From Cyanobacteriota bacterium (GTDB lineage: Bacteria; Cyanobacteriota; Cyanobacteriia; Thermostichales; Thermostichaceae): a DNA stretch of 26,780 nt. Made by a program: the position numbers and the translations under genes. The stretch covers positions 1 to 26,780 of the forward strand of contig JANRIL010000009.1 of assembly GCA_033764955.1 (NCBI GenBank), in the 5' to 3' direction. How positions within the stretch are numbered: the first letter of the stretch is position 1; every line of letters starts with the position of its first letter. Shown here in pieces: positions 7,513-26,780 of this stretch. Below the pieces are notes generated by a model. It did no database searches, had not been told where the DNA came from, and worked only from the letters and a program-made list of their open reading frames with translations.

Positions 7513-7583
7513 AGCGGAACGAACAGGGGTTGCTTTTGAATTTTATCAAGCCCTGATCGCGGGGTGAGATTGACGGGGAGAGG

Positions 7584-7604
7584 GGGGGCAAGCTAGATGC
7601 CCCC
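7584..7604 (-). terminator. GC-rich hairpin downstream of the DJ-1/PfpI gene
   Basis: GGGGGCA-N7-TGCCCCC, about 20 nt past the stop codon. No U-tract, so it may only stabilise the transcript. Confidence 0.3.
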
Positions 7605-7622
7605 TATCAATGAAGACCATGC

Positions 7623-8360
7623 TCAAGAGTCCCTCAGTCCCAAAGCTTGCAACACCAGTTTGGCCGTTTCGACACCAGAGTTTTGCTGTTGCCCAGTCAC
7701 TAGATGTCCATCCCGCACCGCATGAGGGGAAAATGCTGCCTGAGTGACAAAGTGAGCACCCAGTTTTTTCGCTTCATCTTCAATGCGGAACGGCATCACC
7801 TTCTGCCCGACAACCTGATCGGCGTAGTCTTCTTCGCTATTGGCAAAGCCGGTTATCGTTTTTCCTTGAATGAGTAGCGTGCCATCGGCTAAGTAGGTTT
7901 CCAAAAGTAAGCAGGTGCCGTGACAGAGGGCAGCACTGGGCTTAGTGGCCGTGTAGAACTGCATGAACAAGTCCGCTAGCGCGGCATTTTGCCGAAACGT
8001 GAACATGGGTGATTGCCCGCCGCCTATCACGATTGCCTCATACTCTGCCGGATTGAGCGCGGAAATGGCAGGGGTATGGTTCAGTAGTTGCATAAACTCG
8101 GGCTGGTTAATGTATGCCAGCGATAGGGTGTCATCTTTGGAATACCCAGAGGCATCACGAGGATCGCTGAGGTTGTCAAATTCCACCTTGCCACCATGCG
8201 GACTGGCGATCGTGACGGCCAAACCCGCTTGGGTAAATACATCGTAGGGATGAATCAGTTCCGAAGCCCAAAAGCCCACCGGAATACCCAGCGTGGTTGA
8301 AACCGAAGGATTAGCCACAATCATTAAAATTTGCGGACTTATTGACGCATTCTCCAACAA
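7623..8360 (-). CDS. DJ-1/PfpI family (type 1 glutamine amidotransferase-like) protein
   Basis: GFWASELIHPY, GGGQSPM, nucleophile elbow ALCHG, TGFANSEE, DGHLVTGQQQNS. Confidence 0.9.
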   Translation of the reverse strand: MLENASISPQILMIVANPSVSTTLGIPVGFWASELIHPYDVFTQAGLAVTIASPHGGKVEFDNLSDPRDASGYSKDDTLSLAYINQPEFMQLLNHTPAISALNPAEYEAIVIGGGQSPMFTFRQNAALADLFMQFYTATKPSAALCHGTCLLLETYLADGTLLIQGKTITGFANSEEDYADQVVGQKVMPFRIEDEAKKLGAHFVTQAAFSPHAVRDGHLVTGQQQNSGVETAKLVLQALGLRDS

Positions 8361-8403
8361 ACTACCTCAATTCATACTGGATTGGGCATGATAAATTTGT
8401 CCA

Positions 8404-8430
8404 ATGGATAATTTGTATGGATAATATTCA
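8404..8430. promoter_or_regulatory. Putative LysR binding region of the divergent promoter
   Basis: ATGGATAAT repeated at 8404 and 8417, and a T-N11-A imperfect palindrome TGGATAATATTCA (8418-8430) overlapping the LysR start. Confidence 0.4.
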
Positions 8431-9340
8431 CCACACAAATTTGGCAGGTATTGATTTGAATCTGCTGGTTGTATTTGATGCCTTGATAACCGAGCAGAAT
8501 GTTACCCGTGCCGGAGAGCGAGTTGGCTTGAGCCAACCGGCAACCAGTAATGCCCTGGGGCGGTTGCGACGTTTAATGAGGGATGACTTGTTTATCAGAA
8601 CTACGGCTGGACTTCGCCCCACCCCAACCGCGATCGCCCTTCATCAACAGTTGCGCCCCGCCTTGCAGCAGATTCAGGCAGCCCTCTTGGAGCAACCTAT
8701 ATTTGACCCCGCCAACAGTGACCGTGTGTTTGCGATCGGCATGTCTGATTACGTGGAATTTACATTGCTACCATGCTTGATGCAAACGCTACAGACCTGT
8801 GCTCCACAGGTGAGTGTGCAGATTCGATCGGGGGATCGCCAGAAGTTGCTGGCTTTATTGGATAGTGGTGAAATTGATCTCGCTTGTGGACTGTTCCCTG
8901 AGAAAATAGCATGGCATCAAGAACAACTTCTGTTTCAAGAAAGCTATGTTTGTGTTTGCCGCCGCCAGCACCCTATAATTGGCACCTCTCTCTCTTTGGA
9001 AGAGTATCTGACTGTTTCTCACCTGCTGGTTTCGGTGAAGGAAGACCGCATCGGACGTGTGGACATGTTGCTTGCGGAACAAAACCTCAAACGGCGCATT
9101 GCTCTCTCAATACCCCATTTTCTCAGTGTCCCCTTTATTTTGGCAGAGACTGATTTAGTCGCTACGCTAGCCCGCCGTGTTGCTGTTACTTTTGCCAATT
9201 ATCAGTCGTTGAAACTGCTACCACTGCCGCTGCCGATCGCAGACTTTTCAGTGTTTATGCGTTGGCATCGCATGACAGAAACTTCTCCAGCCTATCAGTG
9301 GCTGCGATCGATTGTTTTAGAGGCATCTCGGATGATTTAG
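8417..9340 (+). CDS. LysR family transcriptional regulator (NodD/ToxR-like)
   Basis: HTH DLNLLVVFDALITEQNVTRAGERVGLSQPATSNALGRLR plus effector-binding domain. Divergent from the DJ-1/PfpI gene. Confidence 0.93.
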   Translation: MDNIHHTNLAGIDLNLLVVFDALITEQNVTRAGERVGLSQPATSNALGRLRRLMRDDLFIRTTAGLRPTPTAIALHQQLRPALQQIQAALLEQPIFDPANSDRVFAIGMSDYVEFTLLPCLMQTLQTCAPQVSVQIRSGDRQKLLALLDSGEIDLACGLFPEKIAWHQEQLLFQESYVCVCRRQHPIIGTSLSLEEYLTVSHLLVSVKEDRIGRVDMLLAEQNLKRRIALSIPHFLSVPFILAETDLVATLARRVAVTFANYQSLKLLPLPLPIADFSVFMRWHRMTETSPAYQWLRSIVLEASRMI

Positions 9341-9343
9341 GGA

Positions 9344-10075
9344 TTAGGGATCCTCTGTCCTTGGGGGAGCTTGCAGGCTGAAGAGGGCTTGCCGTGCGGC
9401 CATCATCTCCGCCGTCTTTTTGGAGGATCCCTCCCCTCGCCCCCGTAGGGATCCCTTCACCCACACCGTGACCTCAAACCAGGGGGGATGCTCCTGGGAA
9501 CGGCTTAAGCGATAGTCGGGTAGCTGGCTCCATTGTCGCTGGGTCAATTCTTGGAGAGCCGCCTTGGGGTTACCCCGCACCGGATCGGCCAGCAGTTTGT
9601 GCGCCCGTTCCTGCATGATCGGATCCAGCCACGGGTGAAGCCGTGCGATGGTTCGTTCCTGCCAGCTTAAATAGAGGGATCCCAACACCGCCTCCAGAGC
9701 ATCGGCCAGCCGCCGTGGTCGTCCTTTGCGATCCTGGTGCGCCCCAGATCCGAGGGCAAGAAACAACTCCAGCCCATAGCGATCGGCAATCTCAGCTAAA
9801 AAAGCATCACTGACCAGATCCGAGCGGATCTCAGAAAGATCACCCACCGACCGATCTGGAAAATAGCGATAGAGACATTCTGTGACGACAATCCGCAAAA
9901 CGGCATCCCCCAAAAACTCCAGACGATCATTATTGATCTGGCTATCTAAAGAAGGATGCACCAATGCCTGATCGAGCAGCAGCCAGTTCACCTCCTCCCC
10001 ATAGCGGGATAATCCTAACCGGGAGAGTAACTTTTCCAACGCTTGCCGACGAGCAGGCAACAGAGCAGTCATCAT
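9344..10075 (-). CDS. rnc: Ribonuclease III
   Basis: NDRLEFLGDAVL signature, ADALEAVLGSLYL, C-terminal dsRBD (PKAALQELTQ...GEGSSKKTAEMMAA). Confidence 0.95.
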   Translation of the reverse strand: MMTALLPARRQALEKLLSRLGLSRYGEEVNWLLLDQALVHPSLDSQINNDRLEFLGDAVLRIVVTECLYRYFPDRSVGDLSEIRSDLVSDAFLAEIADRYGLELFLALGSGAHQDRKGRPRRLADALEAVLGSLYLSWQERTIARLHPWLDPIMQERAHKLLADPVRGNPKAALQELTQRQWSQLPDYRLSRSQEHPPWFEVTVWVKGSLRGRGEGSSKKTAEMMAARQALFSLQAPPRTEDP

Positions 10076-10123
10076 TCACTTATTCACCTTCTCAGTCTTT
10101 GCCATCTCAATCTTTGGGCATGG

Positions 10124-11914
10124 TTAAGCAAGGGTATCTTCTAGCTTATCAATCAGAGACTCTGTGTAATCTAGGGCTTGACTGATGGTTGCGGGATCCG
10201 CCAGATCAATGCCCACGGTTTGGAGAGCCTGTTCGGGGCTACGGGATCCCCCCATATCCAGCAACTTGAGATATTTGGGCACAAAATCCTTGCCCGTTAT
10301 TTTGTATTGCTGATAGCAGGCAATAGCAACCACAAAGCTGAGGGTATAGTTGTAGCAATAAAAAGGCTTAAAGAAGATATGCCCAATTCTCGCCCAGTCA
10401 TATTGATGTTCGGGCAACAACTCAACGGCATCTCCACACAAATCCTGGTAGATTTTTAGCCATTCTTCGTTAATAAAATCATGGTCAAAGCTACCGTGGG
10501 TTGCCCGTTGATGCAAAGTCAGCTCTAGGCGACTAATCGTGCTTTGCCGGAATAGAAGATTCAGTTGATCTTCTAGTTGTTGGGTCAATAGTGCTTGCAG
10601 TAGCTCACTATCTTTGCTTTGTTTGAGCAAATAATCTAGGAGCAGCAACTCATTAAATGTAGAGGCAATCTCAGCCAACACCATGGGGGGATCACTATTC
10701 AAATAAGAGCGACGTGCTCGAATTCGTTCAAAGTGTAGACCATGCCCCAATTCATGAGCTAGCGTAAACAGATCATGATAGGTATCGGTATAGGAAAGCA
10801 GCAAATAACTGTGCAACCCATTCACATAGGCACAGAAAGCTCCCCCTCGCTTGCCGGGGCGTACCCGCGCATCCACCCATTGCTTCTCAAAAAAGGGCTT
10901 GGCTTGCTCGGCATAGTCACTACTAAACTCCCGCAATGCCTGCATGAGAATAGCAACTCCATCCTCATAGGTAATCGGGGGAGCCGCACTTGACCAGGGG
11001 GCATACAGGTCGCAAATCCGTACGGAACGCCCCATGCTACGCCCCTTCAGCCGATAGTAGCGTTGAAATAAGTCAAATCGATCGCGGGTTCCCTCCATGA
11101 GGGCTTCAAAAATAGGCAACGAAACCTCATCCACCAACAGTTGCTTGGCTAGGGTAGAGTCATAGCCCCGCCGACCGGACTCTAGGCGGTGATCTTGGAT
11201 GATTGTGTTCAAGATATAGCCATAGAGGGGGTTGTGGTTCGCCAACACCTGCCGGATGGCTCGATAGCCCGCTAAACGAACCTCCGGTTGAGGATGATAG
11301 AGCAGGGATCCCAATTCTGACTCGGTGCTGACGGTTTTGCCCTCCGGTGTTGTTACTGCCGGATAGGACTGCCCCCCTAAGTGCACTTCCCGCAATTTAA
11401 TAAAAGCTTCCCGGCCTGTCAGGGCGGCCTGGTTAAGGGTTTGTTCAACCGATTCTTCAAGCTGATGGGAACGAAGAGCCGCCAATCGACTCAAAAAGTG
11501 TTTATAGCTGGCTAGACTCGCATCGTTGGCTAGCCTAGCGAAATCGGTGGGGGGCATTTGCTGCAATTCGAGGTTAAAAAACAGCAGTTGGTTGCCGACA
11601 TCGGTGAGGACTTCTTGCACCTGGTCATAAAACTGCTTGGCTTGGCTATCCCGTGTGTCAGCGGAAAAGCGCAGCATGGGATAGGAATAAATTTTTAGAC
11701 TTTGCTCATGGATGGCCTCCATTTCCTGCAAAGCTGCCCCTACCCCCCCAGGGCTGAGGGAAGAAACTTGGCGATGATAACGGGTGCGAAAGTCGCGGGC
11801 ACGTTCTTGAACCGCCGCCAAGTCTTGGGCAAATTGGGGATCCCGAAAGTTGGCGTAGAGATCGGAGAGGTCCCAATCTTGGTCAAGATGTTCAGCAGTC
11901 TGGGGCAGAGCCAC
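10124..11914 (-). CDS. M3B oligoendopeptidase F family
   Basis: WDLSDLY at the N-terminus, RPGKRGGAFC, TLAHELGHGLH (HExxH), LAEIASTFNE, WARIGH, FYCYNY. Confidence 0.92.
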   Translation of the reverse strand: MALPQTAEHLDQDWDLSDLYANFRDPQFAQDLAAVQERARDFRTRYHRQVSSLSPGGVGAALQEMEAIHEQSLKIYSYPMLRFSADTRDSQAKQFYDQVQEVLTDVGNQLLFFNLELQQMPPTDFARLANDASLASYKHFLSRLAALRSHQLEESVEQTLNQAALTGREAFIKLREVHLGGQSYPAVTTPEGKTVSTESELGSLLYHPQPEVRLAGYRAIRQVLANHNPLYGYILNTIIQDHRLESGRRGYDSTLAKQLLVDEVSLPIFEALMEGTRDRFDLFQRYYRLKGRSMGRSVRICDLYAPWSSAAPPITYEDGVAILMQALREFSSDYAEQAKPFFEKQWVDARVRPGKRGGAFCAYVNGLHSYLLLSYTDTYHDLFTLAHELGHGLHFERIRARRSYLNSDPPMVLAEIASTFNELLLLDYLLKQSKDSELLQALLTQQLEDQLNLLFRQSTISRLELTLHQRATHGSFDHDFINEEWLKIYQDLCGDAVELLPEHQYDWARIGHIFFKPFYCYNYTLSFVVAIACYQQYKITGKDFVPKYLKLLDMGGSRSPEQALQTVGIDLADPATISQALDYTESLIDKLEDTLA

Positions 11915-12111
11915 CGCAGGCTTCCTCCAATGAAAATAGGATCACTCTAATCTATGGCTCCGAGAGATGCAAATGATGGTTGAAGGATCCCTAGGTCAAT
12001 CCCCCACAAAAGCTATCTGTGTCCGGTAAGCGGGACTGTTGCTGTTGTTTTTAGACTCCTCGATGACCAGCTCTGATGGGCAGAAGCGATCCCCTGGCGG
12101 TTCGAGAAAAA

Positions 12112-12153
12112 GTATTCTAAGCTACTCAAAATCCCCGTTTAGCCAGCTAAGTT
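12112..12153 (+). promoter_or_regulatory. NtcA-activated promoter (GTA-N8-TAC-N22-TAN3T)
   Basis: GTATTCTAAGCTAC at 12112-12125, exactly 22 nt spacer, TAAGTT at 12148-12153, upstream of the ABC operon. Confidence 0.65.
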
Positions 12154-12219
12154 GAGGGGCACATTTCCACTTAAGCCAGCATCTTAGCGGCAGCAGCGTT
12201 GCACAAGGAGTTGATACCC

Positions 12220-13266
12220 ATGTCGATCCTCTATGGTTCCGCGAAAGGAGAAACCCTCCGTCGTCGTACCTTTTTACTCCGTTCAGGGGCGGTGGCGGTG
12301 GGTTTGACCACAACTGCTTTCCTTACCCCGCGCTCTCAAGCCCAATCGGAAAAGCTCAAGGTGGCGGGGGTCTATACCGTTCCGATTGAGCAGCAGTGGG
12401 TCAGCCGCATTCATCAAGCCCTCAAGGCCGCTGAGGCACGGGGAGATATCGAATACAAATGGTCGGAATCCATTTCCAATACCGACTATCCACGGGTAAT
12501 GCGCCAGTATGCCGAAGAAGGCGCTCAACTGTTGGTGGGAGAAGTGTTTGGGGTCGAAAAAGAAGCCCGCACTGTGGCTCAAGACTATCCTGCCATCAGC
12601 TTTTTGATGGGATCTAGCCTCAAACCCGATCCGCAACTGGCCAATTTTTCGGTGTTTGATAATTACATCCACGAGCCATCCTTTTTGACGGGCATGGTGG
12701 CGGGTGGACTCACCCAATCGAATGTGATTGGCATGGTGGGTGGGTATCCGATTCCCGAAGTGAATCGCCTGATGCAGGCTTTTATGGAAGGAGCCAAGGA
12801 AGTCAACCCTGACGTAAAATTTTTGGTGAACTTTATTGGCAGTTGGTTTGATCCCCCCAAGGCCAAAGAGGCCGCTTTTGCTCAGATTGATGCCGGAGCC
12901 GATATTTTGTATGCCGAACGCTTTGGTGTTTCGGATGCCGCCAAAGAACGGAAAATCTTGGCAATTGGCAATGTTATTAATACCCAGCCCGATTATCCCG
13001 AAACGGTGGTAGCCAGCGCCCTTTGGCACATGGAACCAACCATTGATAAAGCGATTGCGGCGGTGAAAGCCGGAGCTTTCAAAGCGGAAGACTATGGGGT
13101 GTATAGCATGATGAAATATGGCGGATCCAGCTTGGCTCCCTGGGGAACCTTTGCTGACAAAATCCCTGCCGACTTAAAGGCTAAGGTCGAGGAGCGGCAA
13201 AAGCAAATTTTGGCTGGGGAATTTACGGTTGCCATCAACGATAACGAACCCAAGTCTACGGTATGA
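12220..13266 (+). CDS. BMP family ABC transporter substrate-binding protein (nucleoside/purine type) with Tat signal
   Basis: AAGGAG RBS at 12205-12210, twin-arginine RRRTFLL signal, and BMP motifs IGMVGGYPIPEV, FIGSWFDPPKAKEAA, GADILY. Confidence 0.9.
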   Translation: MSILYGSAKGETLRRRTFLLRSGAVAVGLTTTAFLTPRSQAQSEKLKVAGVYTVPIEQQWVSRIHQALKAAEARGDIEYKWSESISNTDYPRVMRQYAEEGAQLLVGEVFGVEKEARTVAQDYPAISFLMGSSLKPDPQLANFSVFDNYIHEPSFLTGMVAGGLTQSNVIGMVGGYPIPEVNRLMQAFMEGAKEVNPDVKFLVNFIGSWFDPPKAKEAAFAQIDAGADILYAERFGVSDAAKERKILAIGNVINTQPDYPETVVASALWHMEPTIDKAIAAVKAGAFKAEDYGVYSMMKYGGSSLAPWGTFADKIPADLKAKVEERQKQILAGEFTVAINDNEPKSTV

Positions 13267-14861
13267 CGGGGTGGAGTGCCCCATCGGCATCCCCGGCTGG
13301 AGGGGAGGAGGTCTTAGCTCTAGAAGGGATCAGCAAGCGTTTTGGATCCCTATTGGCTAATGATCAGATTCGCTTAACCCTGCGGGCAGGGCAGGTATTG
13401 GCCTTGCTCGGAGAAAATGGGGCGGGCAAAACCACCCTGATGAACATCCTGTTTGGTCACTATCGAGCCGATCAGGGCACGATTCGCGTCATGGGGCAGC
13501 CCCTCGTGGCGGGATCCCCGGCGGCGGCGATTGCGGCGGGAATTGGCATGGTTCACCAGCGGTTTGCCCTAGCGGAGAACCTGTCGGTGCTCGACAACAT
13601 TGTGGTGGGCACTCAACCCCTCTGGCGACCTTGGTTACAAAAGCGACAGGCTCTGCACAAGCTGCAAACTCTCGCCAACAGCTTCGGCTTAGCCGTGGAT
13701 CCCCAGGCTAGGGTGGGGGATCTGACGGTGGGAGAGCAGCAACGGGTGGAGATTTTGAAGGTGTTATACCGGGATGCTCGCCTGCTCATTCTGGATGAAC
13801 CAACCGCGGTTTTGACCCCCCAGGAAACCCATCAACTCTTTACTACCTTGCGTCGCTTGACGGCAGAGGGACTCTCCATCATTCTCATCTCTCACAAATT
13901 GCAGGAGGTGATGCAGGTCAGTGATCGGATTGTCGTGCTGCGGGCAGGGCGGGTGGTGGCGGATGTAGATACGTCCTCAACTACCCCCGAACAACTGGCA
14001 GGGTGGATGGTTGGTCAGCAGGTGCCTCCGCTGGTCAAGCTGCCTTTGGTGGCTGGGGATCCGGTTTTACAACTGAAGCAAGTCACGGCTCAAGGATCCT
14101 CCCCACAGCCCATTCAGGATCTCTCCCTCACCTTGTACCGCTCACAAATCGTGGGGATCGCCGGGGTCGCGGGGAATGGGCAGACCACCTTAGCCAACCT
14201 GCTCTGTGGGTTGATCCCTCCCTTGGCTGGAGAGTTTTGTTTGTGGGGAAGGGTGGTATCGTGGCCTTCCCCTCGTGGGATGGTGCAAGAGGGCATGGCG
14301 CGGATCCCAGAGGATCGTCACCAAATGGGGGTAATGGGATCCCTGAGCATTGAGGAGAATCTCCTGGCTGAGCGCTATTGGCATCCCACCTTTTCTCGTT
14401 GGGGTTTTCGACGATCCAAGCGAATTCGGGAACAGGCGCTGGCTTGGATGCAGCAGTATGATGTGCGTTGTCCCCAAGCGGACGGATCGAAAGCGCTGCA
14501 CCTGCCGATCCAGCTTTTGTCGGGGGGCAATATGCAGAAGGTGATTCTGGCACGGGGGCTGGCGGAGAATCCACCGATTATTGTGGCGCATCAACCCACC
14601 CGTGGTCTGGATCTGGGGGCAGTGGCCTATGTGCATCAGCAGTTGTTGGCAGCACGGGAGGCAGGGGCGGCAATTCTGTTGATTTCGGAGGATTTGGATG
14701 AGCTGCTCCGTTTGGCGGATCGGATCGGGGTGATGGTGCGTGGTCGCCTTTCTCCCCCTGTGCCGGTGGCGCAAACATCTGTGCAAGAACTGGGATTACG
14801 GATGGCGGGTCAACCGGAGAGGGTCACCTCAGTTGCAGGAGGGGGGGGGAATGCAGATTGA
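13263..14861 (+). CDS. ABC transporter ATP-binding protein (CUT2/nucleoside type, duplicated NBD)
   Basis: GENGAGKT Walker A, LILDEPT, second NBD GVAGNGQ and LSGGNMQK. ATGA overlap with the upstream gene. Confidence 0.95.
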   Translation: MTGWSAPSASPAGGEEVLALEGISKRFGSLLANDQIRLTLRAGQVLALLGENGAGKTTLMNILFGHYRADQGTIRVMGQPLVAGSPAAAIAAGIGMVHQRFALAENLSVLDNIVVGTQPLWRPWLQKRQALHKLQTLANSFGLAVDPQARVGDLTVGEQQRVEILKVLYRDARLLILDEPTAVLTPQETHQLFTTLRRLTAEGLSIILISHKLQEVMQVSDRIVVLRAGRVVADVDTSSTTPEQLAGWMVGQQVPPLVKLPLVAGDPVLQLKQVTAQGSSPQPIQDLSLTLYRSQIVGIAGVAGNGQTTLANLLCGLIPPLAGEFCLWGRVVSWPSPRGMVQEGMARIPEDRHQMGVMGSLSIEENLLAERYWHPTFSRWGFRRSKRIREQALAWMQQYDVRCPQADGSKALHLPIQLLSGGNMQKVILARGLAENPPIIVAHQPTRGLDLGAVAYVHQQLLAAREAGAAILLISEDLDELLRLADRIGVMVRGRLSPPVPVAQTSVQELGLRMAGQPERVTSVAGGGGNAD

Positions 14862-15912
14862 AGCCAGAGAGTCAGTTGCCCTTTGGCAGGTGGTGCTGGC
14901 TCCACTGGCTGCTGTCCTAATGGCTTTGGCGTTGTGCAGCCTTTTGATTGTCTGGACGGGATCCTCAGTGGGTGCGGCTTACCTCGCCCTTTGGCAGGGG
15001 GGAGTGGGATCCCGTTTTGCCCTGACGGAAACCTTGACCCGAGCCACCCCCCTCATCTTGACAGGATTGGCGGTGGCGGTGGCCTTTCGGGCGAAGTTGT
15101 GGAATATCGGTGCGGAAGGCCAGTTTTATGCCGGAGCCTTGGCGGCAACACTGCTGGGATCCGGTGCCATCACTGCCCCTGCTTGGTTGTTGATCCCCCT
15201 GCTGCTGGCGGCGGGAGCCGGAGCGGGCGGACTGCTCTTGGGGATCCCGGCCTGGTTGAAGGTGCGCTTTCGGGTGGATGAGGTGGTGACCACCCTCCTC
15301 CTCAATTTCATTGTGCTGCTGGCGGTGAGCTATTTGCTGGAGGGACCACTTAAGGATCCCCTCGCACTGGGTTGGCCGCAGGCGCGCCCGATTATGGCCA
15401 CCGGGGTATTGCCGAAACTGATGGAGCGAACTCGCCTACATGGAGGGCTGCTACTGGCACTGGCGGCAGCGGGGTTAATCTGGGGGATCAACCGCCTGAC
15501 CATTTGGGGCTATGAGATGAAAGCGGTGGGATCCAACCCTGAGGCGGCGGCATTTTTGGGGATCCCGGTGCATCGCGTGATTTTGTATACCTCTTTGCTG
15601 AGCGGTGGATTGGCGGGATTGGCGGGAGTGAGTGAGGTGACTGGATTGAAGGGCTATCTCACCCTGGATCTCTCCCCTGGATTTGGCTACAGCGGTATTG
15701 TTGTAGCGATGCTGGCTCAACAACACCCTTTAGGAGTCGTGGCGGCAGCAGTGTTTATTGCGGGCATCTATGTGGGAGCCGACAGCATGAGCCGGAGCTT
15801 GGGGGTGCCCACCTATTTAGCAGATGTAATCGTAGCTACTGCCCTCCTCGGCATGTTAGTGAGTAGCTGGTTAACCCATTACCGGATTCGCTGGGAGAAA
15901 AAGCGTGATTGA
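14851..15912 (+). CDS. ABC transporter permease
   Basis: ATPLILTGLAVAVAFRAKLWNIGAEGQ, GFGYSGIVVAML, multiple TM helices. ATG at 14851. Confidence 0.92.
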   Translation: MQIEARESVALWQVVLAPLAAVLMALALCSLLIVWTGSSVGAAYLALWQGGVGSRFALTETLTRATPLILTGLAVAVAFRAKLWNIGAEGQFYAGALAATLLGSGAITAPAWLLIPLLLAAGAGAGGLLLGIPAWLKVRFRVDEVVTTLLLNFIVLLAVSYLLEGPLKDPLALGWPQARPIMATGVLPKLMERTRLHGGLLLALAAAGLIWGINRLTIWGYEMKAVGSNPEAAAFLGIPVHRVILYTSLLSGGLAGLAGVSEVTGLKGYLTLDLSPGFGYSGIVVAMLAQQHPLGVVAAAVFIAGIYVGADSMSRSLGVPTYLADVIVATALLGMLVSSWLTHYRIRWEKKRD

Positions 15913-16843: not shown

Positions 16844-17016
16844 TCATTTCTTCTATCGCTAGGCTTACTCGGACATGCGGATTCCCCTCAAACAATCCGA
16901 GCATGGATCATCTAGTGTGAATGGGCTGATGTACAGAAGTAATCATCACAACATCGTGAGGCAGAACCATTCGTCCTTCTTCATCTTGATGTTGTTTAAG
17001 GTAGTAACCGAATATC

Positions 17017-17135
17017 TATAGCAATCCTGCGAGGAATGTGAGAGATTTTATTCCCCTTTCCCTGTGAGAGGGAACTAGGAGTTCGGTGCCGTTCACTGAA
17101 CTTTAGTGAACATTCCTTAATTTGTAGGGGCTATA
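17017..17135. repeat. Second MITE-like inverted-repeat element
   Basis: Begins TATAGCAATC like the element at 1952 and ends GCTATA. Inner IR AGGAATGT/ACATTCCT and internal hairpin GTTCACTGAA-C-TTTAGTGAAC. Confidence 0.5.
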
Positions 17136-17193
17136 CCATATTTTTCATGGGCATTTTTTCACGTTGTCTTCTAGCAACCAAGCCATAGCAAAA

Positions 17194-17982
17194 CTATTCA
17201 TCCTGGCTTCTTGACTGCTGACTCATAAGATAAAGTTCGATATCAGAAATTCTCAACTCTAGCTCTGTGAGACGGTTTTCAATGTTATCAAATGTTTTAG
17301 ATCCTAAACTAGGAGGCTTGTGCATTAGCCACTTTCCCTGAAAATGCTTAAATGGAATACTTTGCTCTTTAGAAAACTGATTAACGGCACAAATAACTCC
17401 ATACCATCCCGGATCCCAGTCATCACCAAAGATAATTCCATTTGGTTTAAGAAGCTTCCAATAGTGACTAATATCTTGGAAGACACTTTCCTCATCATAT
17501 CCTGCATCAATATAAATTAAATCAGATTGCACATCAAAGGCAGCTAAATATTTAGAAGCGATCGTACTCGTATTAGGGATCGGAATAATATAGTCTTGTA
17601 ATTCTAAATGTGAGACATTAGCTAAAAACTGAAAATATAATGTTGGATATCCATTCTGTAGTGATTTTGTAAATTGTTCTCGAGAGAAATCATCCGTTCG
17701 CATTAGATGCTCAATACCCCCTAGCCAAGTATCAACACAAATGATTATGCTGTCCAGTGATTTTTCTCTAAGTAACGATGCCATATGTAGAGCTGAAGCA
17801 CCTTTCCATGTGCCAACCTCAATAATTACCTTTGGCTCTGTTGTCGTAATAAGTTTCTCAAAAATGGGATGGTGACTTCCCCATCCTTGCAGGTCTAGAG
17901 GGTACTGATTCGGATGAAAATGATCATACGGATCCGGCAAACGCAACCTTTCTCGCCACTCTTTAATTAACTGACTCATCAT
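17194..17982 (-). CDS. Class I SAM-dependent methyltransferase (Methyltransf_24-like)
   Basis: IIEVGTWKGASA motif I, ICVDTW, DLIYIDAG, LLKPNGIIFGDDW. Visibly AT-rich. Start could be 18018, 17982 or 17979. Confidence 0.88.
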   Translation of the reverse strand: MMSQLIKEWRERLRLPDPYDHFHPNQYPLDLQGWGSHHPIFEKLITTTEPKVIIEVGTWKGASALHMASLLREKSLDSIIICVDTWLGGIEHLMRTDDFSREQFTKSLQNGYPTLYFQFLANVSHLELQDYIIPIPNTSTIASKYLAAFDVQSDLIYIDAGYDEESVFQDISHYWKLLKPNGIIFGDDWDPGWYGVICAVNQFSKEQSIPFKHFQGKWLMHKPPSLGSKTFDNIENRLTELELRISDIELYLMSQQSRSQDE

Positions 17983-18204
17983 CAAACCCTTCTGGAACTT
18001 AGTTTGATTCTCCCTCAATCGCTTCTAATGAAAGCGAAGTTTACTAAATTATTTGGATTTCGGTTGTTGGGTATGGGTCGCGCGAGCCATAAGACTTTTT
18101 GTTCGCTTCGGCAAGAGGGATCCTTAGGGAAGGAAACTGGTGATGGCCTGCTTACTTCCCAGTCAGAGGACGTCTCTTCAACAAAACCTAGTTTCACCCA
18201 GCCA

Positions 18205-19875: not shown

Positions 19876-20979
19876 ATGATCACCTTGTCCCGAATGCGTA
19901 GCGAAGCCTCCCCTTGGCGGGGCTTAATTCATCACTACCGTGATCTCCTGCCGGTGAGTGAGCAAACCCCGATTGTGACCCTCTGTGAAGGCAATACACC
20001 CCTCATTCCCGCCCCCAGTCTGGCCGAAATCATTGGTAAATCCTGTCAGGTCTTTCTCAAATTTGATGGACTCAATCCGACGGGGAGCTTTAAGGATCGG
20101 GGCATGACCATGGCGGTTTCAAAAGCTAAAGAAGCTGGAGCCGAAGCTGTGATCTGTGCCAGCACCGGCAACACCTCCGCCGCCGCCGCCGCCTACGCTG
20201 CCCAAGGGAAACTACGTGCCTACGTGGTCATTCCCGATGGCTATGTAGCCAAAGGCAAGCTGGCACAAACCTTAATGTATGGAGCCGAAATTCTGGCCAT
20301 CAAGGGCAACTTTGACCACGCCCTCAGCATGGTACGGCAGATTGCCGAGCGCTATCCGGTGGCTCTGGTCAACTCCGTCAACCGCTTTCGTCTAGAGGGA
20401 CAAAAGACGGCTGCTTTTGAAATTGTTGATGCGTTGGGAGATGCCCCTGACTGGTTGTGCATTCCGGTGGGCAATGCCGGCAACATCACCGCCTATTGGA
20501 TGGGATTTTCCCAGTATCACCAACACCGAAAAACCACACACCGCCCCCAACTCTATGGGTTTGAAGCAGCGGGATCGGCTCCCATCGTAGAAAATCGTGT
20601 GATCGAACACCCCGAAACCATCGCCACCGCCATTCGGATCGGCAACCCCGCCAGTTGGCGCAAAGCCACGGCAGCCTGTGCCGTCAGCCAGGGATCCATT
20701 GATAGCGTCACGGATGCGGAGATTCTCGCCGCCTATCGCCTGCTGGCTCGCCAGGAGGGCATCTTCTGCGAACCCGCCAGTGCTGCCTCCGTGGCAGGCT
20801 TGTTGAAATATCGTCAGCAGGTACCCCCCCACGCCAGGATTGTCTGTGTGTTAACGGGTAACGGTCTCAAAGATCCAGAGACGGCTATTGATCACTGCCA
20901 AGCTCAAATGCACCTAGGGTTGGAGGCTGACTTGTCCGTGCTTGCTAAAACCATGGGATTTACAGCGGGTGTCGCCTAA
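19876..20979 (+). CDS. thrC: Threonine synthase
   Basis: [16 protein letters not shown] (PLP lysine), [43 protein letters not shown]. Confidence 0.96.
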
Positions 20980-20986
20980 AGCGTTG

Positions 20987-21015
20987 CTGAGATCGAGTTA
21001 CTGAGATCGAGTTAC
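20987..21015. repeat. 14-bp tandem duplication (CTGAGATCGAGTTA x2)
   Basis: Exact copies at 20987-21000 and 21001-21014, just after the thrC stop. Confidence 0.85.
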
Positions 21016-21553
21016 CGATGATCGCAAATTTATCATTCGTTCAAAACAAAATGGTAATTTTGATACCCATTAACTGAGCTTGAGCAGTCAGGATAGCAAC
21101 GGGCTATTTCAACATTCCTCTGTATATTCACTTGAATGCCCTGCCATTTCACTAAATGTATGGCTCCCTAAGTGTATAAACTTTTCTCTCTTCCCGTGAG
21201 AACCCAAGTCAGCCACAGCTTGATCATTCTGTGATCTTGATCAGGATCATCTCCGGCCATAAACCCTAGTATGAACCCTGAGGAATTTTGTCCAAACCAC
21301 CCCAAGTCAGCCAGCTAAACTGACCAAAACAAAAGAGTCATGCAGATTCATGATCAACAAACCAATCCACATCTAAAATATGGAGGGCTAATCACAAAAG
21401 TTTTCCAGGTTGTGCCCGTTGATACTGTGATATAACTCCCCTGATTTCCTTGCCCCTTGGCAGGTTTAAGGTGTTGTTATCCAGTCATATCTTCCCTCAC
21501 CCATTTGCCTGAGTTGAGTATCCCCCAAGTCCATTTCCTCTGGGACTTTTGCT

Positions 21554-24500
21554 ATGAATTCATCTCATTTGCGTCGGCTCATTGCCGTTCCTCTCCCTTG
21601 CCCTGCTGCATCGGCTGGTCAACCCTCACCAGAGACAACAGTGGGTCAACATCTGCTGATAGTGGATGATGGATCGGCGTTGGTAGTGCCTCTGAGCAGG
21701 CAACTGCGGGCTAGCGGATGGCAGGTGTTGCTGTTGTCTCGCTCTGGTCAACGGGTGCCAGCAGGCAGACCTGCCCCCGTTATTGAGGTGGGATCCCAGC
21801 CGACGGAACTCGAAGCAATGGTGCAACGGCTCAGGCAGGTATCCGGTGGACTGGCCGGGATCCTCAGTTTGCACACCCAACCCCATGCTTGGGATGATCA
21901 CTGGCTGGAAAAGGCTCTGGGGGATCTGCGCTTAGCAATCGGGCTAGCTCGTGCCATCAGTTTACAGACGGATCCCTTATCCTTTCTCTATTTCGTCACG
22001 GCTCAGGGAGGCCATTTTGGTCTGGGGGGCAACCCGCCCATCGACGCTCTGGCTACAGGGCTGGAGGGACTACCTCATCCGCTCCGTATGGAAATGCCCA
22101 AAACCTCCTTCCGCTCCATTGATCTGGATCCGGCGACGCCCCTAGAAGCCCAAGCCGAAGAGATCCTGACGGAGATCCGCCAACCGGATCAACCCTATCG
22201 CACCGCTTATGGCTGGCGACAGGGGCAACGCTCTGTTTTGAGTGTGCGGCAGATTCCGGCCAATTTAGAACCTCCCCCCTTGTCCCAAAACTCAGTCGTA
22301 GTGTTTGCTGGGGGAGCGCGAGGAATTGGAGCCGTCTGTGCCCAATCCTTGGCCGAACGGATCCCTTGCACCCTGATTTTTTTGGGGCGCACCGAGTTGA
22401 CCCCTGAAATCGAGGAATTGAGCCGTCTCTCCCCACCTGAACGACTCCAGCGCTCCGAAGCCTTTGGGCGAGACTATAAAGCGGCTCATCCCGGTTGCCT
22501 ACCCCGAATTCCCCGTGAACTATGGCGAAAAAAGATGCAGGCGGTAGAGGCGGTAGAAACCCTCCGGTCGTTGGAAACGTTGGGATCCCAAGTGGCTTAT
22601 TACGCAACCGATGTACGGGATCCCCTCAAGCTGCAACAGGTGTTTCAGACTATTCAGCAACGCTATGGGCGACCGGATATGGTTGTGCATGTGGCTGGGC
22701 TGGGAGGAGTGGAAACGGATCGACTGTTGATGCGCAAGGAATGGTCAGTCATCGATCAAGTGATCGAAACCAAGGTGACCGGAGCCATCCATCTTCTTAA
22801 GGCGGCAGAAGCCCAGCAAGTTCCCCTTTTTATTGGGTTTGGCTCGATTGCCAGTCGCTTTGGCAATAGTGGGCAGGTGGATTATGCCAGTGCTAACGCC
22901 CTCCTACACGGCATCGTGCGCGCCCACAATGCCCGCGGGGTTCTACCTGTCGCTAAAGTGCTGGCTTGGGGAGCCTGGGATGAGGTGGGAATCGCCGTCA
23001 GTGGCCCCACCAAACAAATGCTGATCAACTACGGTGTGCAGTTTATCGCCCCTAAGGATGGGGGATCCAGCTTTGTCCAGGAGCTATCTCACCCCCTCAG
23101 CCCATCATCCCCTGCCGAAGTCTATCTCAGCCCCAGTTGGGCTGGACTGGATCAATTGCTGCAAGAAAACGAGGCCATGTTGACGACAGCGGATCCCCCA
23201 CGACTCTTGGGATCCATCCTCCATTACGAGGCGGGTCAGTCGCTTAAGGCTGAGCATGTTTTAGAGGCGAAAGGGATCCCGTTTCTGGATCATCACCGCT
23301 ATGACGGGACGGCCTGGGTGCCAGCGGTGATGGGGATGGAGGTAGCGGTAGAAGCAGCGGCTTCCCTCTTCCCTGACCTCCAGCCCTTTGCCCTGCGTCA
23401 GGTCGCCCTCAAAAAAGCCGTGCGGTTGGTGCGGGATGAGTCAGTCACTTTGATCACCGAGGCTCATCGGCAACCCCCATCCCCCCTAGAGGCTCAGGAA
23501 ACGATCGTGCAAGTCACCGTTTCGGCTCGTTATAAAGACCGCACCTGGGTGTTTGCCGAGATGCAGGTGGTCTTATCCGCCGCTAGGGATCCCATTGAAG
23601 CCGGATTGCAGGATGGACACCTCTATCACGGTGGGTTGCCGATTGAACAGGAACCGGGAGAAGTGATCCAGCAATCCCACGCCGATCTCTATCCCTCCCC
23701 GTGGTTGCGCTTTCAAACCTATGGCTCCACCTTTCAGGTGATTCAGTCGATGGCGATGAATCTGGCGGCGGGACGCACCCAAGGGCAGATGGTCACTGAT
23801 GCCGATCTGAAGGGCTGTTGTACCCCCTTGACCCTGATCGATGGGGTGTTTCAGGCCTACGGGGTGTTGATCAGCACCATGCAGGGATCCTGGTGTGGGC
23901 CACCCTTGGGAATTGGCGAAATTCGCTGGTTACCGGGTACAGCCCAAACCCGCCAGGTCAGCTTTCAAATTCGCGTCAACTTGGCAGACAAAGATAATTT
24001 TCCCATCTTGCATATGCAAGACGAACAGGGCAGATGCATTCTGCGGATGCAGGGGGCAGAACAGGGGGGAACCAGTGTGAAAGCCCTCACCGAACAGGTG
24101 AAAAAATCTGCCGCTCCCCCTGTCACCCCCTACCTGGGATCCATCCTGGAAGAACAGCCCGGTCAACGATTGCGTGCCCAACAGATTTTGGATCCCTTGC
24201 AGGAAAAGCTCTTGCAGGATCACAAATTTAGCGGGTTTGTCTTGGTGCCAGCCGTTTATTTTATGGAGGTGGCGGTGGAAGCAGCCGCTCGCCTCCAGCC
24301 GGATCCCCCCCCCACAGGCTTACGCAACTTTCAAATTCACCAAATGTTTCACCTGCTGGCGGGATCCCAATCTTTAATCACAGAGGCTGAGCAGATCAAA
24401 CCTGGGGAAACCTACGTCAAGCTTTTTTCCCAACAAAAGTCTCAGTTGCGCCTCCACGCCGAAGGTCTCGTCACCCACAGCAGTCCCAGGAGCTTGGGAT

Positions 24501-24949
24501 CCCATCCTATCGGGGGGTTGCCGGAGATTCGCACCGAATCGGGGGAATGGCTCTATGCCCACCGCTTCCCCAACGGCCCAATTTTTCAAGTCATCGACAA
24601 AATGATCTTGGCGGAGCACCACCAGTCCTTGGCCTATTTGCGGTTAACCAGCCACCCCCACCCCCAGCGCTGGTTACCGCTCACCCTACTGGATGGAGCC
24701 TTTCAAGTGGACTCCGCCACCCGAAGTGGTTTCGATCACCCCAGTGGCCTGCCCAAAACAGTAGAAAAGATGGACTGGACAACCGCTGCCCCCCTAGCGG
24801 ATCAGGTGATCTGTCTCTCCTCCACCCGTGATGGATCCCCCGCTGCCCCAGGAGCATTGTCTCTGACGGATCGCAACGGCAATATTCTGTTACAAATGAC
24901 AGGGATTTCGTTGACCCCCGTACTGCCCACCCTTGGAGCCAGGAGTTGA
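21554..24949 (+). CDS. Stand-alone PKS/PUFA-synthase-like KR-DH-DH protein (SDR ketoreductase plus two polyketide dehydratase domains)
   Basis: Structural KR subdomain (FRSIDLDP), Rossmann GGARGIG, FGSIASRFGNSGQVDYASAN, WGAWDEVG. DH1: HRYDGTAWVP...YGSTFQ...LIDGVFQ. DH2: HKFSGFVLVP...NGPIFQ...LLDGAFQ. Confidence 0.9.
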   Translation: MNSSHLRRLIAVPLPCPAASAGQPSPETTVGQHLLIVDDGSALVVPLSRQLRASGWQVLLLSRSGQRVPAGRPAPVIEVGSQPTELEAMVQRLRQVSGGLAGILSLHTQPHAWDDHWLEKALGDLRLAIGLARAISLQTDPLSFLYFVTAQGGHFGLGGNPPIDALATGLEGLPHPLRMEMPKTSFRSIDLDPATPLEAQAEEILTEIRQPDQPYRTAYGWRQGQRSVLSVRQIPANLEPPPLSQNSVVVFAGGARGIGAVCAQSLAERIPCTLIFLGRTELTPEIEELSRLSPPERLQRSEAFGRDYKAAHPGCLPRIPRELWRKKMQAVEAVETLRSLETLGSQVAYYATDVRDPLKLQQVFQTIQQRYGRPDMVVHVAGLGGVETDRLLMRKEWSVIDQVIETKVTGAIHLLKAAEAQQVPLFIGFGSIASRFGNSGQVDYASANALLHGIVRAHNARGVLPVAKVLAWGAWDEVGIAVSGPTKQMLINYGVQFIAPKDGGSSFVQELSHPLSPSSPAEVYLSPSWAGLDQLLQENEAMLTTADPPRLLGSILHYEAGQSLKAEHVLEAKGIPFLDHHRYDGTAWVPAVMGMEVAVEAAASLFPDLQPFALRQVALKKAVRLVRDESVTLITEAHRQPPSPLEAQETIVQVTVSARYKDRTWVFAEMQVVLSAARDPIEAGLQDGHLYHGGLPIEQEPGEVIQQSHADLYPSPWLRFQTYGSTFQVIQSMAMNLAAGRTQGQMVTDADLKGCCTPLTLIDGVFQAYGVLISTMQGSWCGPPLGIGEIRWLPGTAQTRQVSFQIRVNLADKDNFPILHMQDEQGRCILRMQGAEQGGTSVKALTEQVKKSAAPPVTPYLGSILEEQPGQRLRAQQILDPLQEKLLQDHKFSGFVLVPAVYFMEVAVEAAARLQPDPPPTGLRNFQIHQMFHLLAGSQSLITEAEQIKPGETYVKLFSQQKSQLRLHAEGLVTHSSPRSLGSHPIGGLPEIRTESGEWLYAHRFPNGPIFQVIDKMILAEHHQSLAYLRLTSHPHPQRWLPLTLLDGAFQVDSATRSGFDHPSGLPKTVEKMDWTTAAPLADQVICLSSTRDGSPAAPGALSLTDRNGNILLQMTGISLTPVLPTLGARS

Positions 24950-24950
24950 T

Positions 24951-26780
24951 ATGGTTGCCAGTCTGCTTGCCCCCCCCACTAATGCTTTTGAGGTTGGTAG
25001 CCGCTCCACTGTTGATGGACTGGCCATTGTCGGCATGAGCTGTCTTTTCCCAGATGCCCTTGACATTCAGGAGTTTTGGCAGCACGTCTTGCAGCGGCAT
25101 TGCTCGATTGGGCGAGTCCCGCTGGATCACGCCCCCAGCCAAGGCGGGGATCCCTCGCCAGACTTTTCCTTAGCCGCCTTGATGCCCGTCATCTCGGTCA
25201 AGCCACAATCCTTTCGCCTGCCTCCCAAATCGACCCAAAACTTTGATCGCCGTATCTTGCCTATGTTGCAGGTGGTGCATGGTCTGTTGAACGGGGATCC
25301 CAAGATTGATCGGGCTTCCACCCTCACCATCATGTGTTCCCAAAAAATGTTTCCCCAAGAAGAAGCTAGCACCTGGATCAGCCGCCGGATACGGATGTTA
25401 GAGCTGTTCGAGCGGGTGGCTGATCGACAAGGGATCCCGACGGATCGGTTGCCTGAGCTAAAGGCAGCCTGGGTCACCGCCTACGATCAAGAATTTCCCA
25501 ATCCTGGTTTTGAGGGCTTTTTGGCGGAATCCTCCAGCTTGATGGCCTCAATGATCAGCAAAACCTTTAATCTGGGTGGCGGTCATATTGCCATGGATGC
25601 CACCTGTGCCAGCACCATCACCGCCATTCAAACCGCTTGGGATGCTCTCAATTCCGGTCATAATGACGCCGCCTTGATCACCGCTCTTTCTCCCGAAGCC
25701 GTCCCCTCTCGCTTTGCCCACTACGCGCAACTGGGTATTTTTACTCGTGATGCCGTCTTGCCTTTTGATTCATCCGCCAGTGGTTCTGCCCTGGGGGAGG
25801 GGATCGGAGCTATTTTGGTCAAGCGACTCCAGGATGCGGAACGGGACGGGGATCCCATCTATGCCGTAATTCGCGGGGTAGGATTCAGCTCGGATGGAGC
25901 AGGGGCAGGATTTGTCTCTCCTCACAAAGAGGGTCAAGTACGCGCCATGCAGGCAGCCTATCGGATGGCGGATACGGATCCCCAGACAGTGCGCTTGATC
26001 GAAGCCCATGCCACCGGAACCCCCAAAGGGGATCTGACGGAGCTGGAATCGATGGGGGAAATTTTTGGATCTCAATTGAGAACGGGATCCCAGCCGATCA
26101 CGATTGGGTCGGTCAAGAGCAACATCGGCCATCTCTTGGCCGCTTCCGGTATGGCAGGGTTATTCAAAGCTTGTTGTGCCCTCTCCCACGGGGTGTTGCC
26201 CCCCACTATTTTTCGGGATCCCCGCCCCGAACTGCGGGATCACTTTACTCAGTTTCAGTTATTGAGCCAACCCCAGCCCTGGCCGGAGGGGGATCGGGAG
26301 CGCTTTGCCGCCGTCAGTTCCTTTGGGTTTGGCGGTGTGAATGCCCATCTTATTTTGCAGGCTCATCCCTCTACCGCCCAGGGCTTGCCAATTCGCTCGC
26401 GTGCCCATTCCCTTACTATGTCGTTACCGATGTCGCCATCTCAGTTGTTAGCGGAGGACTCTATCATGTCTCATTCCACCCTGGTGCCACTTGAACAGCA
26501 ACTAGCATCGGTGCCTGGAGAATCTACGCAATCTCCTATGGCTGGTAGCTCTTCTGACTACATCATGCTGACGGATGAAGAAGTGGCCGCGGAAGTCCTG
26601 TCGATTGTCGCCGCCTGCACCGGATACGAGGTCAGTGAGCTGCAAGCGGATCATGACCTCGATGCCGATTTGGGGATTGATTCTCTGAAAAATATGGAGA
26701 TTTTGCTCAAGGTGGGAGAACGATTCCGTGTACAACCCCAGGAAGGAGACCAAATCACCGACTATCCCACGATCGGCAAG
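24951..26780 (+). CDS. Beta-ketoacyl synthase-ACP protein (PfaA/HglE-like, no AT between KS and ACP); 3' truncated by window end
   Basis: Translated by hand because it is absent from the ORF track. AGGAG RBS at 24941, open for 610 codons. LAIVGMSCLFP, DATCAS (Cys 25605), EAHATGT (His 26007), SVKSNIGH (His 26130), SSFGFGGVNAH, then ACP TGYEVSEL...DLDADLGIDSLKNMEIL (Ser 26682). Confidence 0.92.
   Translation, partial: MVASLLAPPTNAFEVGSRSTVDGLAIVGMSCLFPDALDIQEFWQHVLQRHCSIGRVPLDHAPSQGGDPSPDFSLAALMPVISVKPQSFRLPPKSTQNFDRRILPMLQVVHGLLNGDPKIDRASTLTIMCSQKMFPQEEASTWISRRIRMLELFERVADRQGIPTDRLPELKAAWVTAYDQEFPNPGFEGFLAESSSLMASMISKTFNLGGGHIAMDATCASTITAIQTAWDALNSGHNDAALITALSPEAVPSRFAHYAQLGIFTRDAVLPFDSSASGSALGEGIGAILVKRLQDAERDGDPIYAVIRGVGFSSDGAGAGFVSPHKEGQVRAMQAAYRMADTDPQTVRLIEAHATGTPKGDLTELESMGEIFGSQLRTGSQPITIGSVKSNIGHLLAASGMAGLFKACCALSHGVLPPTIFRDPRPELRDHFTQFQLLSQPQPWPEGDRERFAAVSSFGFGGVNAHLILQAHPSTAQGLPIRSRAHSLTMSLPMSPSQLLAEDSIMSHSTLVPLEQQLASVPGESTQSPMAGSSSDYIMLTDEEVAAEVLSIVAACTGYEVSELQADHDLDADLGIDSLKNMEILLKVGERFRVQPQEGDQITDYPTIGK

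Follow-up and report, generated by a model that had tools for sequence, protein, structure and literature searches.

Secondary lipid synthases of the Pfa and Hgl kind form a diverse group from which few products are known. Among the closest described systems, the polyunsaturated fatty acid (PUFA) synthase is made up of PfaA (KS-AT-ACPn-KR-DH), PfaB (AT), PfaC (KS-CLF-DH-DH), and PfaD (ER), as laid out in PMC13291983 (KS stands for ketosynthase, AT for acyltransferase, ACP for acyl carrier protein, KR for ketoreductase, DH for dehydratase, CLF for chain length factor, and ER for enoylreductase). The same source documents fused pfaDA and pfaBC genes as well as split pfaA genes, and permutation of pfa genes as such is not new. 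The hgl islands of non-heterocystous cyanobacteria are reported to make C24 1,3-diols and their glycosides (PMC11804610). Here we describe a synthase operon in a cyanobacterial genome of the family Thermostichaceae (G000; GenBank assembly GCA_033764955.1; 3.8 Mb, 48 contigs, 89% complete). The window (i.e., the whole stretch of 26,780 nucleotides that was analyzed) is the entire contig C17 of this genome (JANRIL010000009.1), and it holds the first 5.2 kb of a five-gene, ~14 kb operon that extends across contigs C17 and C10. Judging from the genes that it carries, the product of the operon is probably an undescribed sulfated long-chain alcohol lipid.

The part of the operon that lies in the window (21554-26780) comprises gene A and the 5' part of gene B, with the following features.

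21554..24949, + strand: gene A (1131 aa; pseudo-KR/KR, DH1, and DH2; from the open reading frame [ORF] and Pfam)
21644..23173, + strand: KR region of gene A, residues 31-540 (Gly-rich loop at 22310; catalytic Tyr444 at 22883-22885)
23198..24058, + strand: DH1, residues 549-835 (His581 at 23294-23296; Asp763 at 23840-23842)
24098..24928, + strand: DH2, residues 849-1125 (His890 at 24221-24223; Asp1047 at 24692-24694)
24941..24945, + strand: AGGAG, Shine-Dalgarno-like, 5 nt ahead of the ATG of gene B and inside the final part of gene A (read from the sequence)
24951..26780, + strand: gene B, 5' part (KS1, then a ~70-aa linker and the first ACP as far as its last helix; truncated by the contig end)
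25020..26411, + strand: KS1 (Cys at 25605-25607; His at 26007-26009 and 26130-26132)
26592..26780, + strand: ACP (PP-binding; Ser of DLGIDS at 26682-26684)

The right edge of the window falls inside the ACP of gene B, and the gene resumes on the reverse strand of C10 from base 62434. The sole other polyketide synthase (PKS)-type KS in G000 is located at this end of C10, also on the reverse strand. The end of C17 and the reverse-complemented end of C10 overlap by 6 nt in frame, the ACP helix carries on across the join exactly as it does in intact orthologues, and the joined gene B is collinear with these (i.e., P0004 and gene B of G171). We conclude that C17 followed by C10 (reverse strand) represents one gene split by assembly; a break within an ACP repeat would be a typical outcome of short-read assembly. 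The number of near-identical ACP units varies among the orthologues (one in G003, two each in G171 and G045, and five in G009), and in G000 a single ACP is visible, inside which the contig breaks.

The continuation of gene B (P0003; 1719 aa) contains a pseudo-ACP, a FabD-like AT (motif GHSVGE), a second KS (KS2), and a C-terminally fused PfaD-family ER (residues 1245-1690); Pfam assigned AT, KS, PfaD/NMO, and a FabD helical insert to it. The ER scores 603 bits on the PfaD model TIGR02814 (curated cutoff, 449 bits), and KS2 scores 493 bits on the PfaA model TIGR02813, below its cutoff of 1010 bits. Read from its sequence, the domain order of gene B is KS1-ACP(n)-pseudoACP-AT-KS2-ER. The initial annotation, made from the window, had described a Pfa/Hgl-like secondary lipid synthase that is split, reordered, equipped with a doubled DH, and devoid of a cis-AT. 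Its other elements stand, and the "AT-less" character is an assembly artifact, because the contig ends in the ACP and the cis-AT lies on C10. A domain that seems to be missing at a contig end should thus not be taken as biology. The pseudo-ACP (P0003 residues 83-148; C10 reverse strand, ~61991-62186) reads DLGLTR in place of DLGIDS, and its phosphopantetheine Ser is gone; every orthologue examined has this conserved domain, with the ACP array on one side of it and the AT on the other, and ~100 residues without a domain assignment come after it.

Gene B is followed in the same orientation, at successive gaps of 111, 9, and 75 bp, by three genes: a thioester reductase (TR) and two sulfotransferases (STa and STb). 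A convergent gene comes after STb, and thrC precedes gene A; the unit therefore comprises these five genes. TR is a stand-alone protein of 415 aa that matches Pfam NAD_binding_4 (E = 2.4e-20). A sequence search of the Protein Data Bank (PDB) with TR gave no match. Its structural model (predicted local distance difference test [pLDDT], 82.7) has as its top folds rice DPW (which we take to be a fatty acyl reductase), the terminal R domain of the myxalamid synthase, a PKS thioreductase, and the R domain of a carboxylic acid reductase (CAR); these modeled similarities support reductive chain release. Querying the ESM Atlas with TR returned generic clusters of the short-chain dehydrogenase/reductase (SDR) and NAD_binding_4 kind only. 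In a collection of 5.8 billion proteins, to which all counts of protein relatives given here refer, TR has 29 full-length relatives at 48% identity or more, and below that level, down to an E value of 1e-20, there is one fragment only. No thioesterase (TE) domain was detected by Pfam and NCBIfam in the five operon proteins.

STa (356 aa) and STb (351 aa) are paralogues with 59% mutual identity. Both match Sulfotransfer_3 (117 and 112 bits; cutoff, 27 bits; E = ~1e-32), and they carry CHRSGTT at residues 55/59 and RDGRAV at 195/199, presumably the 5'-phosphosulfate-binding (5'-PSB) and 3'-phosphate-binding (3'-PB) motifs. G000 encodes one phosphopantetheinyl transferase (PPTase) and one adenylylsulfate (APS) kinase; therefore, holo-ACP and 3'-phosphoadenosine-5'-phosphosulfate (PAPS) can be made. 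Among the genes that the initial annotation had proposed to look for downstream, an AT, a second KS, a PfaD-type ER, and a thioester reductase are thus present in the operon, together with the two sulfotransferases, and the PPTase is in the genome; no KS-CLF was detected, and the G000 operon carries no glycosyltransferase.

From this gene set, we favor with moderate confidence a pathway in which a long acyl chain is made by an iterative Pfa/Hgl-like synthase, set free as an alcohol by TR, and then O-sulfated by the sulfotransferases. The FabD-like AT would load malonyl on the phosphopantetheinylated ACP(s). KS1 and KS2 would elongate the chain iteratively, probably over different chain-length ranges, and the KR, the DH, and the FMN-type ER would reduce it in every round, with occasional skipped steps leaving hydroxyls. 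TR would then free the long acyl-ACP reductively, giving first the aldehyde and then the primary alcohol, and STa and STb would move sulfate from PAPS to the hydroxyl(s), yielding a long-chain alkyl sulfate or an alkanediol disulfate. We infer the iterative mode, the chain length, the presence of hydroxyls, the four-electron reduction, the sulfate acceptor, and the expression of the operon; the sequence does not allow chain length, additional hydroxyls or double bonds, or what DH2 does to be predicted. The gene set predicts a specific, testable product (i.e., a sulfated long-chain alcohol), and with five genes the operon is compact and suited to heterologous expression.

The sulfotransferases could instead activate a hydroxyl as a leaving group in the manner of CurM and the olefin synthases, in which case the product would be an alkene or an unsaturated aldehyde or alcohol with no sulfate ester. 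Elimination assisted by a sulfotransferase is established chemistry for the cyanobacterial enzymes CurM and Ols (PMC11730487), and the operon sulfotransferase has a weak similarity to the CurM sulfotransferase domain (E = 0.0065). The operon encodes no thioesterase, however, and its two sulfotransferases stand alone downstream of TR. Moreover, their closest matches in the sequence search of the PDB are tyrosylprotein sulfotransferases (TPSTs), not CurM, and the three glycosyltransferases that replace the sulfotransferases in one relative (G045; see below) fit decoration, not activation. We consider such an elimination quite unlikely and retain sulfation of the released alcohol as the better account of STa and STb.

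Pfam assigned to gene A a KR (residues 249-477), PKS_DH_N in two stretches, and PS-DH, and detected no KS, AT, or ACP, in agreement with the earlier description of the first gene as a KR plus two DH domains. Among the NCBIfam models, gene A matches PfaA best, in the KR-DH part of that model (positions 1755-2355; 129 bits, again under the cutoff of 1010 bits), and the KR region was the only region of gene A with matches in a sequence search of the PDB. The KR match extends over 229 residues for 178 model positions, which makes the insert that had been proposed for this domain plausible. The GGARGIG and YASAN-type motifs of the KR are kept in all 14 family members, and in DH1 all 14 likewise retain the HxxxGxxxxP His and the DxxxQ Asp. 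DH2 has diverged more than DH1: its Asp is kept in 14/14 members and its His in 12/14 (Tyr in the other two), and the motif Gly is lost in most of them. An AlphaFold model of residues 545-1131 (pLDDT, 75) consists of two consecutive double-hotdog units, and its best PDB folds are those of the dehydratases CurK, CurF, MlnB, and PksJ. Both the Pfam assignments and the modeled fold place the gene A DHs with the PKS type, not the FabA type.

Gene A ends (TGA, 24947-24949) one nucleotide before the ATG of gene B (24951), the spacing that had been noted for these two co-oriented genes, and the alignment of orthologues favors this start rather than TTG 24933. The location of AGGAG inside gene A suggests translational coupling of genes A and B. 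The description of the window part of gene B as a KS with a Cys-His-His triad joined by a linker of ~70 aa to an ACP was borne out by Pfam and by alignment. Cys219, His353, and His394 of KS1 are unchanged across 4 aligned KS, and Cys-His-His is present in every aligned row of KS1 and KS2; the PP-binding domain covers residues 554-615 (numbering of the TTG-started frame). KS1 scores 272 bits on the PfaA model (cutoff, 1010 bits). In the protein collection, there are 19 relatives of gene A at 41% identity or more and 11 relatives of the gene B type. The relatives of genes A and B carry generic names (e.g., "SDR family oxidoreductase" and "PfaD family ... protein") and come from cyanobacterial metagenome-assembled genomes (MAGs), with one labeled Anaerolineae. 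G171, whose operon is on contig C133 (L059 = G171:C133), was placed by genome search in the same class as G000, and the NCBI label "Anaerolineae bacterium" on a protein of the same architecture is probably wrong.

A quick maximum-likelihood tree was built from 52 hand-picked KS rows labeled by architecture. No family match to Pfa above the cutoff was found in 14 named control genomes, and the tree consequently lacks labeled PfaA, PfaC, and HglE references. Both KS1 (support, 100) and KS2 (support, 99) fall outside the 13-row clade of modular PKS (support, 99), a grouping that the initial annotation had singled out for checking. KS2 stands beside the KS of PfaA-architecture proteins, and KS1 is long-stemmed in an unresolved group with KS-CLF-type rows. 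The best single-KS match of KS1 in the PDB is 6riw "ORF10," which we take to be the Moritella PfaC KS-CLF. When KS1 was searched against 1.84 billion representative proteins, giant modular PKS dominated, since the scores of their many KS domains are summed; among the 150 matches listed, only P0053, P0005, and P0239 were useful.

These affinities bear on whether the operon encodes a canonical Pfa-like membrane fatty acid or PUFA synthase that supplies acyl chains for ordinary lipids. PfaA and PfaD are the best NCBIfam models for the KS, KR, and ER regions, and the relatives have tandem ACPs. Against this, the PfaA scores are far under the cutoff, and the search of G000 with the PfaA model gave no match over 1010 bits. 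No FabA-type DH/isomerase was detected by Pfam in the operon proteins, and there is no CLF in the operon, both KS domains keeping the active Cys in the aligned orthologues (as a control, the cyanobacterial KS-CLF of G038 reads E/F/H in the CLF row). A dedicated TR accompanies the synthase in 10/10 genomes, which suggests that the chain leaves by reduction and not by acyl transfer. We regard a canonical Pfa-like role as highly improbable and prefer the proposed alcohol sulfation pathway.

Occurrence was counted in 401 cyanobacterial species genomes and in the 41 genomes nearest to G000. Strong matches to gene A and to TR occur in the identical 10 of the 401 genomes (G000, G003, G007, G009, G010, G045, G159, G171, G209, and G218), a co-occurrence that overstates the support, because the counted genomes are mutually related and not independent. 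Of the 41 nearest genomes, the same 5 hold all of the strong matches to gene A, TR, and the sulfotransferase; weak additional matches numbered 4 for gene A (KR only) and 2 for the sulfotransferase. All five genes recur in G171, unchanged in order, on one 56.7 kb contig. The order in G159 is gene B-TR-STa-STb, and in G007 it is ER-TR-ST followed by an SDR. The duplication of STa and STb is common to G000, G159 (61% identity), and G171 (~70%). A matching order of PfaD-ER, TR (53% identity), and ST was also found on a metagenome contig (L036; 3.6 kb, 76% G+C) that is clearly non-cyanobacterial; the metagenome scan with the TR protein alone gave nothing, and with an alignment it gave the informative L036 and a weak match (L037).

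The recurrence of the TR-ST pair is relevant to a further explanation, in which the sulfotransferases act on another acceptor (e.g., the sugar of a glycolipid or a polysaccharide), the product of the PKS and TR is a plain fatty alcohol or a glycolipid, and the link to the sulfotransferases is indirect. STa has a faint match to NoeE, a Nod-factor sugar sulfotransferase (27.6 bits; cutoff, 500 bits), the sulfotransferase gene is unlinked from TR and the PKS in G003, and a GT2-methyltransferase gene is located ~4.4 kb away on C10. In opposition, TR adjoins a sulfotransferase in G000, G007, G009, G159, G171, and L036, strong sulfotransferase orthologues are restricted to the PKS-bearing genomes (the 5 of 41 mentioned above; the 2 additional matches are weak), and the G000 operon is without a glycosyltransferase. 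We regard another acceptor as unlikely and the alcohol released by TR as the preferred substrate.

In G045, the series gene A-gene B-TR is followed by three UDPGT glycosyltransferases where the sulfotransferases would stand. Because sulfotransferases and glycosyltransferases alternate after the same core, the core product appears to bear free hydroxyls that are decorated later, and this sister operon offers a natural control. Four relatives have a single, more distant sulfotransferase (47-51% identity) that is followed by an SDR. A candidate for this cluster-linked SDR elsewhere in G000 was set aside as a probable paralogue: the best match has 47% identity, and a second copy in G009 is similar at 45%. 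In G209 (L061 = G209:C186, 6400-8361), a 653-aa ORF that Pfam leaves unmatched comes after TR; its product could represent a fourth type of enzyme that tailors this core or adds its head group. Directly 3' of STb there is a fatty-acid-desaturase-like protein in G159 (L058 = G159:C90, 354-1739; a weak match of 36 bits) and a Rieske protein in G171 (L059, 14822-15838); these two proteins may provide lineage-specific oxidative tailoring.

Several observations weigh against the sulfated alcohol pathway or limit its reach, in addition to the relatedness of the counted genomes. The join of C17 and C10 rests on 6 nt and collinearity, and at least one tandem ACP unit may be absent from the G000 assembly. 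A scan of 20800-21700, upstream of gene A, for promoters and terminators revealed no such site, and neither a transporter nor a starter-loading enzyme is encoded within the operon. The PKS pair does not adjoin TR and the sulfotransferase in G003 and G009, and in G003 TR and the sulfotransferase are on separate contigs. The chemistry differs among lineages (i.e., one sulfotransferase plus an SDR versus two sulfotransferases), and TR might stop at the aldehyde.

The host octamer informs on the history of the operon. The palindrome GGGATCCC occurs in 4915 copies in G000 (1.29 per kb), and the canonical cyanobacterial GCGATCGC is rare there (0-19 copies per contig). Positions 21554-26780 hold 13 GGGATCCC sites (2.49 per kb), consistent with the figure of at least 12 reported earlier, and the C10 part of the operon holds 12; the operon thus reaches or exceeds the genome-wide density. 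At the orthologous loci of six other genomes, 0-1 GGGATCCC sites were counted, and G045 has GCGATCGC instead. Since the octamer is enriched in the operon and essentially absent from the orthologous loci, long residence in the G000 lineage is favored, as had been argued from the window. TR and the sulfotransferases of G000 share 69-72% identity with those of another family (f16) versus 61-68% with those of its own family, and the operon family is patchy (4/41 sampled families); this closeness and patchiness hint at past lateral transfer or loss.

Another possibility is that the G000 operon is decaying or has fallen silent. Two relatives have broken frames: gene A of G010 (G010:C122, 18463-21870) is split across 3-4 frames, and the frame of gene B of G009 (L014 = G009:C48, 6052-7203 plus 7149-14900) is broken within the ER. 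These breaks could reflect MAG assembly errors or decay. In G000 itself, all five frames are open and every catalytic motif checked is intact, which makes a remnant very unlikely and leaves the sulfated alcohol pathway as the preferred interpretation.

Other features of the window and of the genome were recorded. The window gave no RNA family in an Rfam scan. Upstream of the operon, positions 12199-16843 of C17 encode a Bmp-family binding protein, an ABC ATPase, and two BPD_transp_2 permeases, and a low-G+C patch is located at 17001-18000 (38.7%, versus ~52% overall). This patch contains a Methyltransf_24 gene (17194-18018, - strand) with no NCBIfam match, which sits between the ABC-permease genes and a PucC-like major facilitator superfamily (MFS) gene; the patch with its methyltransferase gene may be acquired DNA. 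On C10 (L002, 7031-9912), ~1.4 kb past the operon end, there are large ORFs of 655 and 304 aa that resemble membrane permeases. Contig C25 (16,984 bp) has 0 copies of GGGATCCC versus ~22 expected and 5 copies of GCGATCGC, and C8, C12, and C24 are depleted of GGGATCCC too; these four contigs could be mis-binned, recently acquired, or plasmid DNA.

In a full-text literature search, which leaves most subscription journals outside its coverage, we found no PfaD-type synthase with a TR and sulfotransferases, no cyanobacterial long-chain alkyl sulfates, and no description of this architecture. The searches thus gave no characterized match, which agrees with the suggestion of the initial annotation that the pathway is undescribed. 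With the PUFA synthase, the operon shares a PfaA-like KS2, a KR followed by PKS-type DH, a PfaD-type ER that passes the cutoff, tandem ACPs (in the relatives), and probably an iterative mode. It differs from that synthase in its permuted order, one protein being KR-DH-DH and the second KS1-ACPn-pseudoACP-AT-KS2-ER, in its FabD-like AT placed ahead of KS2, and in the release by TR that precedes the sulfotransferases. Fused PfaD-PfaA synthases (ER-KS-AT-ACPn-KR-DH; e.g., proteins with the NCBI label Vulgatibacter) are likewise large fused polypeptides, and their ER is 49-53% identical to that of gene B; in contrast, the ER comes first there and last here, a single KS is present there, and KR-DH is part of the same chain.

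CurM and the olefin synthases also couple a cyanobacterial PKS to a PAPS-dependent sulfotransferase. In CurM, a cis sulfotransferase domain is paired with a TE for decarboxylative elimination, whereas two free-standing sulfotransferases follow a reductase here, without a TE, and the similarity of the operon sulfotransferase to that of CurM is negligible (at the E value given above). At the level of the predicted product, an analogue is found in the fatty alcohol disulfates of Entamoeba, which are long-chain alcohols with sulfate ester(s) (PMC6801973 and a 2026 bioRxiv preprint). The analogy is confined to the product, and the source is eukaryotic. We know of no PKS-TR operon for these Entamoeba lipids.

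The heterocyst glycolipid (Hgl) synthases provide the remaining comparison. The operon has three core ORFs versus 7-10 hgl homologues and a different domain order, its TR stands alone without an ACP, and the head-group enzymes of G000 are sulfotransferases, with no glycosyltransferase in the operon; the term "sulfotransferase" is absent from the main text and one supplement of PMC11804610. No match above the cutoff was obtained for nifH in G000, a genome that is 89% complete, and a HetR family search of G000 likewise gave no match, although it carries little weight, since none was found in 14 control genomes either. We propose tentatively, and with less assurance than the pathway itself, that these operons form a small cyanobacterial pathway family of patchy distribution in which a permuted Pfa/Hgl-like synthase and a reductase make a very-long-chain alcohol whose head group is swapped by lineage, and that G000, as a presumed non-diazotroph, would use it to make new alkyl (di)sulfate envelope or surfactant lipids (i.e., sulfated cousins of the heterocyst glycolipids). 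If true, this would add a sulfate-ester lipid class to the cyanobacteria, and it would bear on the origin of heterocyst glycolipid chemistry from simpler alcohol lipids, a question raised in PMC11804610. What the two systems have in common is a cyanobacterial Pfa-like synthase, thioester reduction to a fatty alcohol or diol, and the addition of a polar head group afterwards, and the likeness extends to the variant operon of G045, which bears glycosyltransferases.

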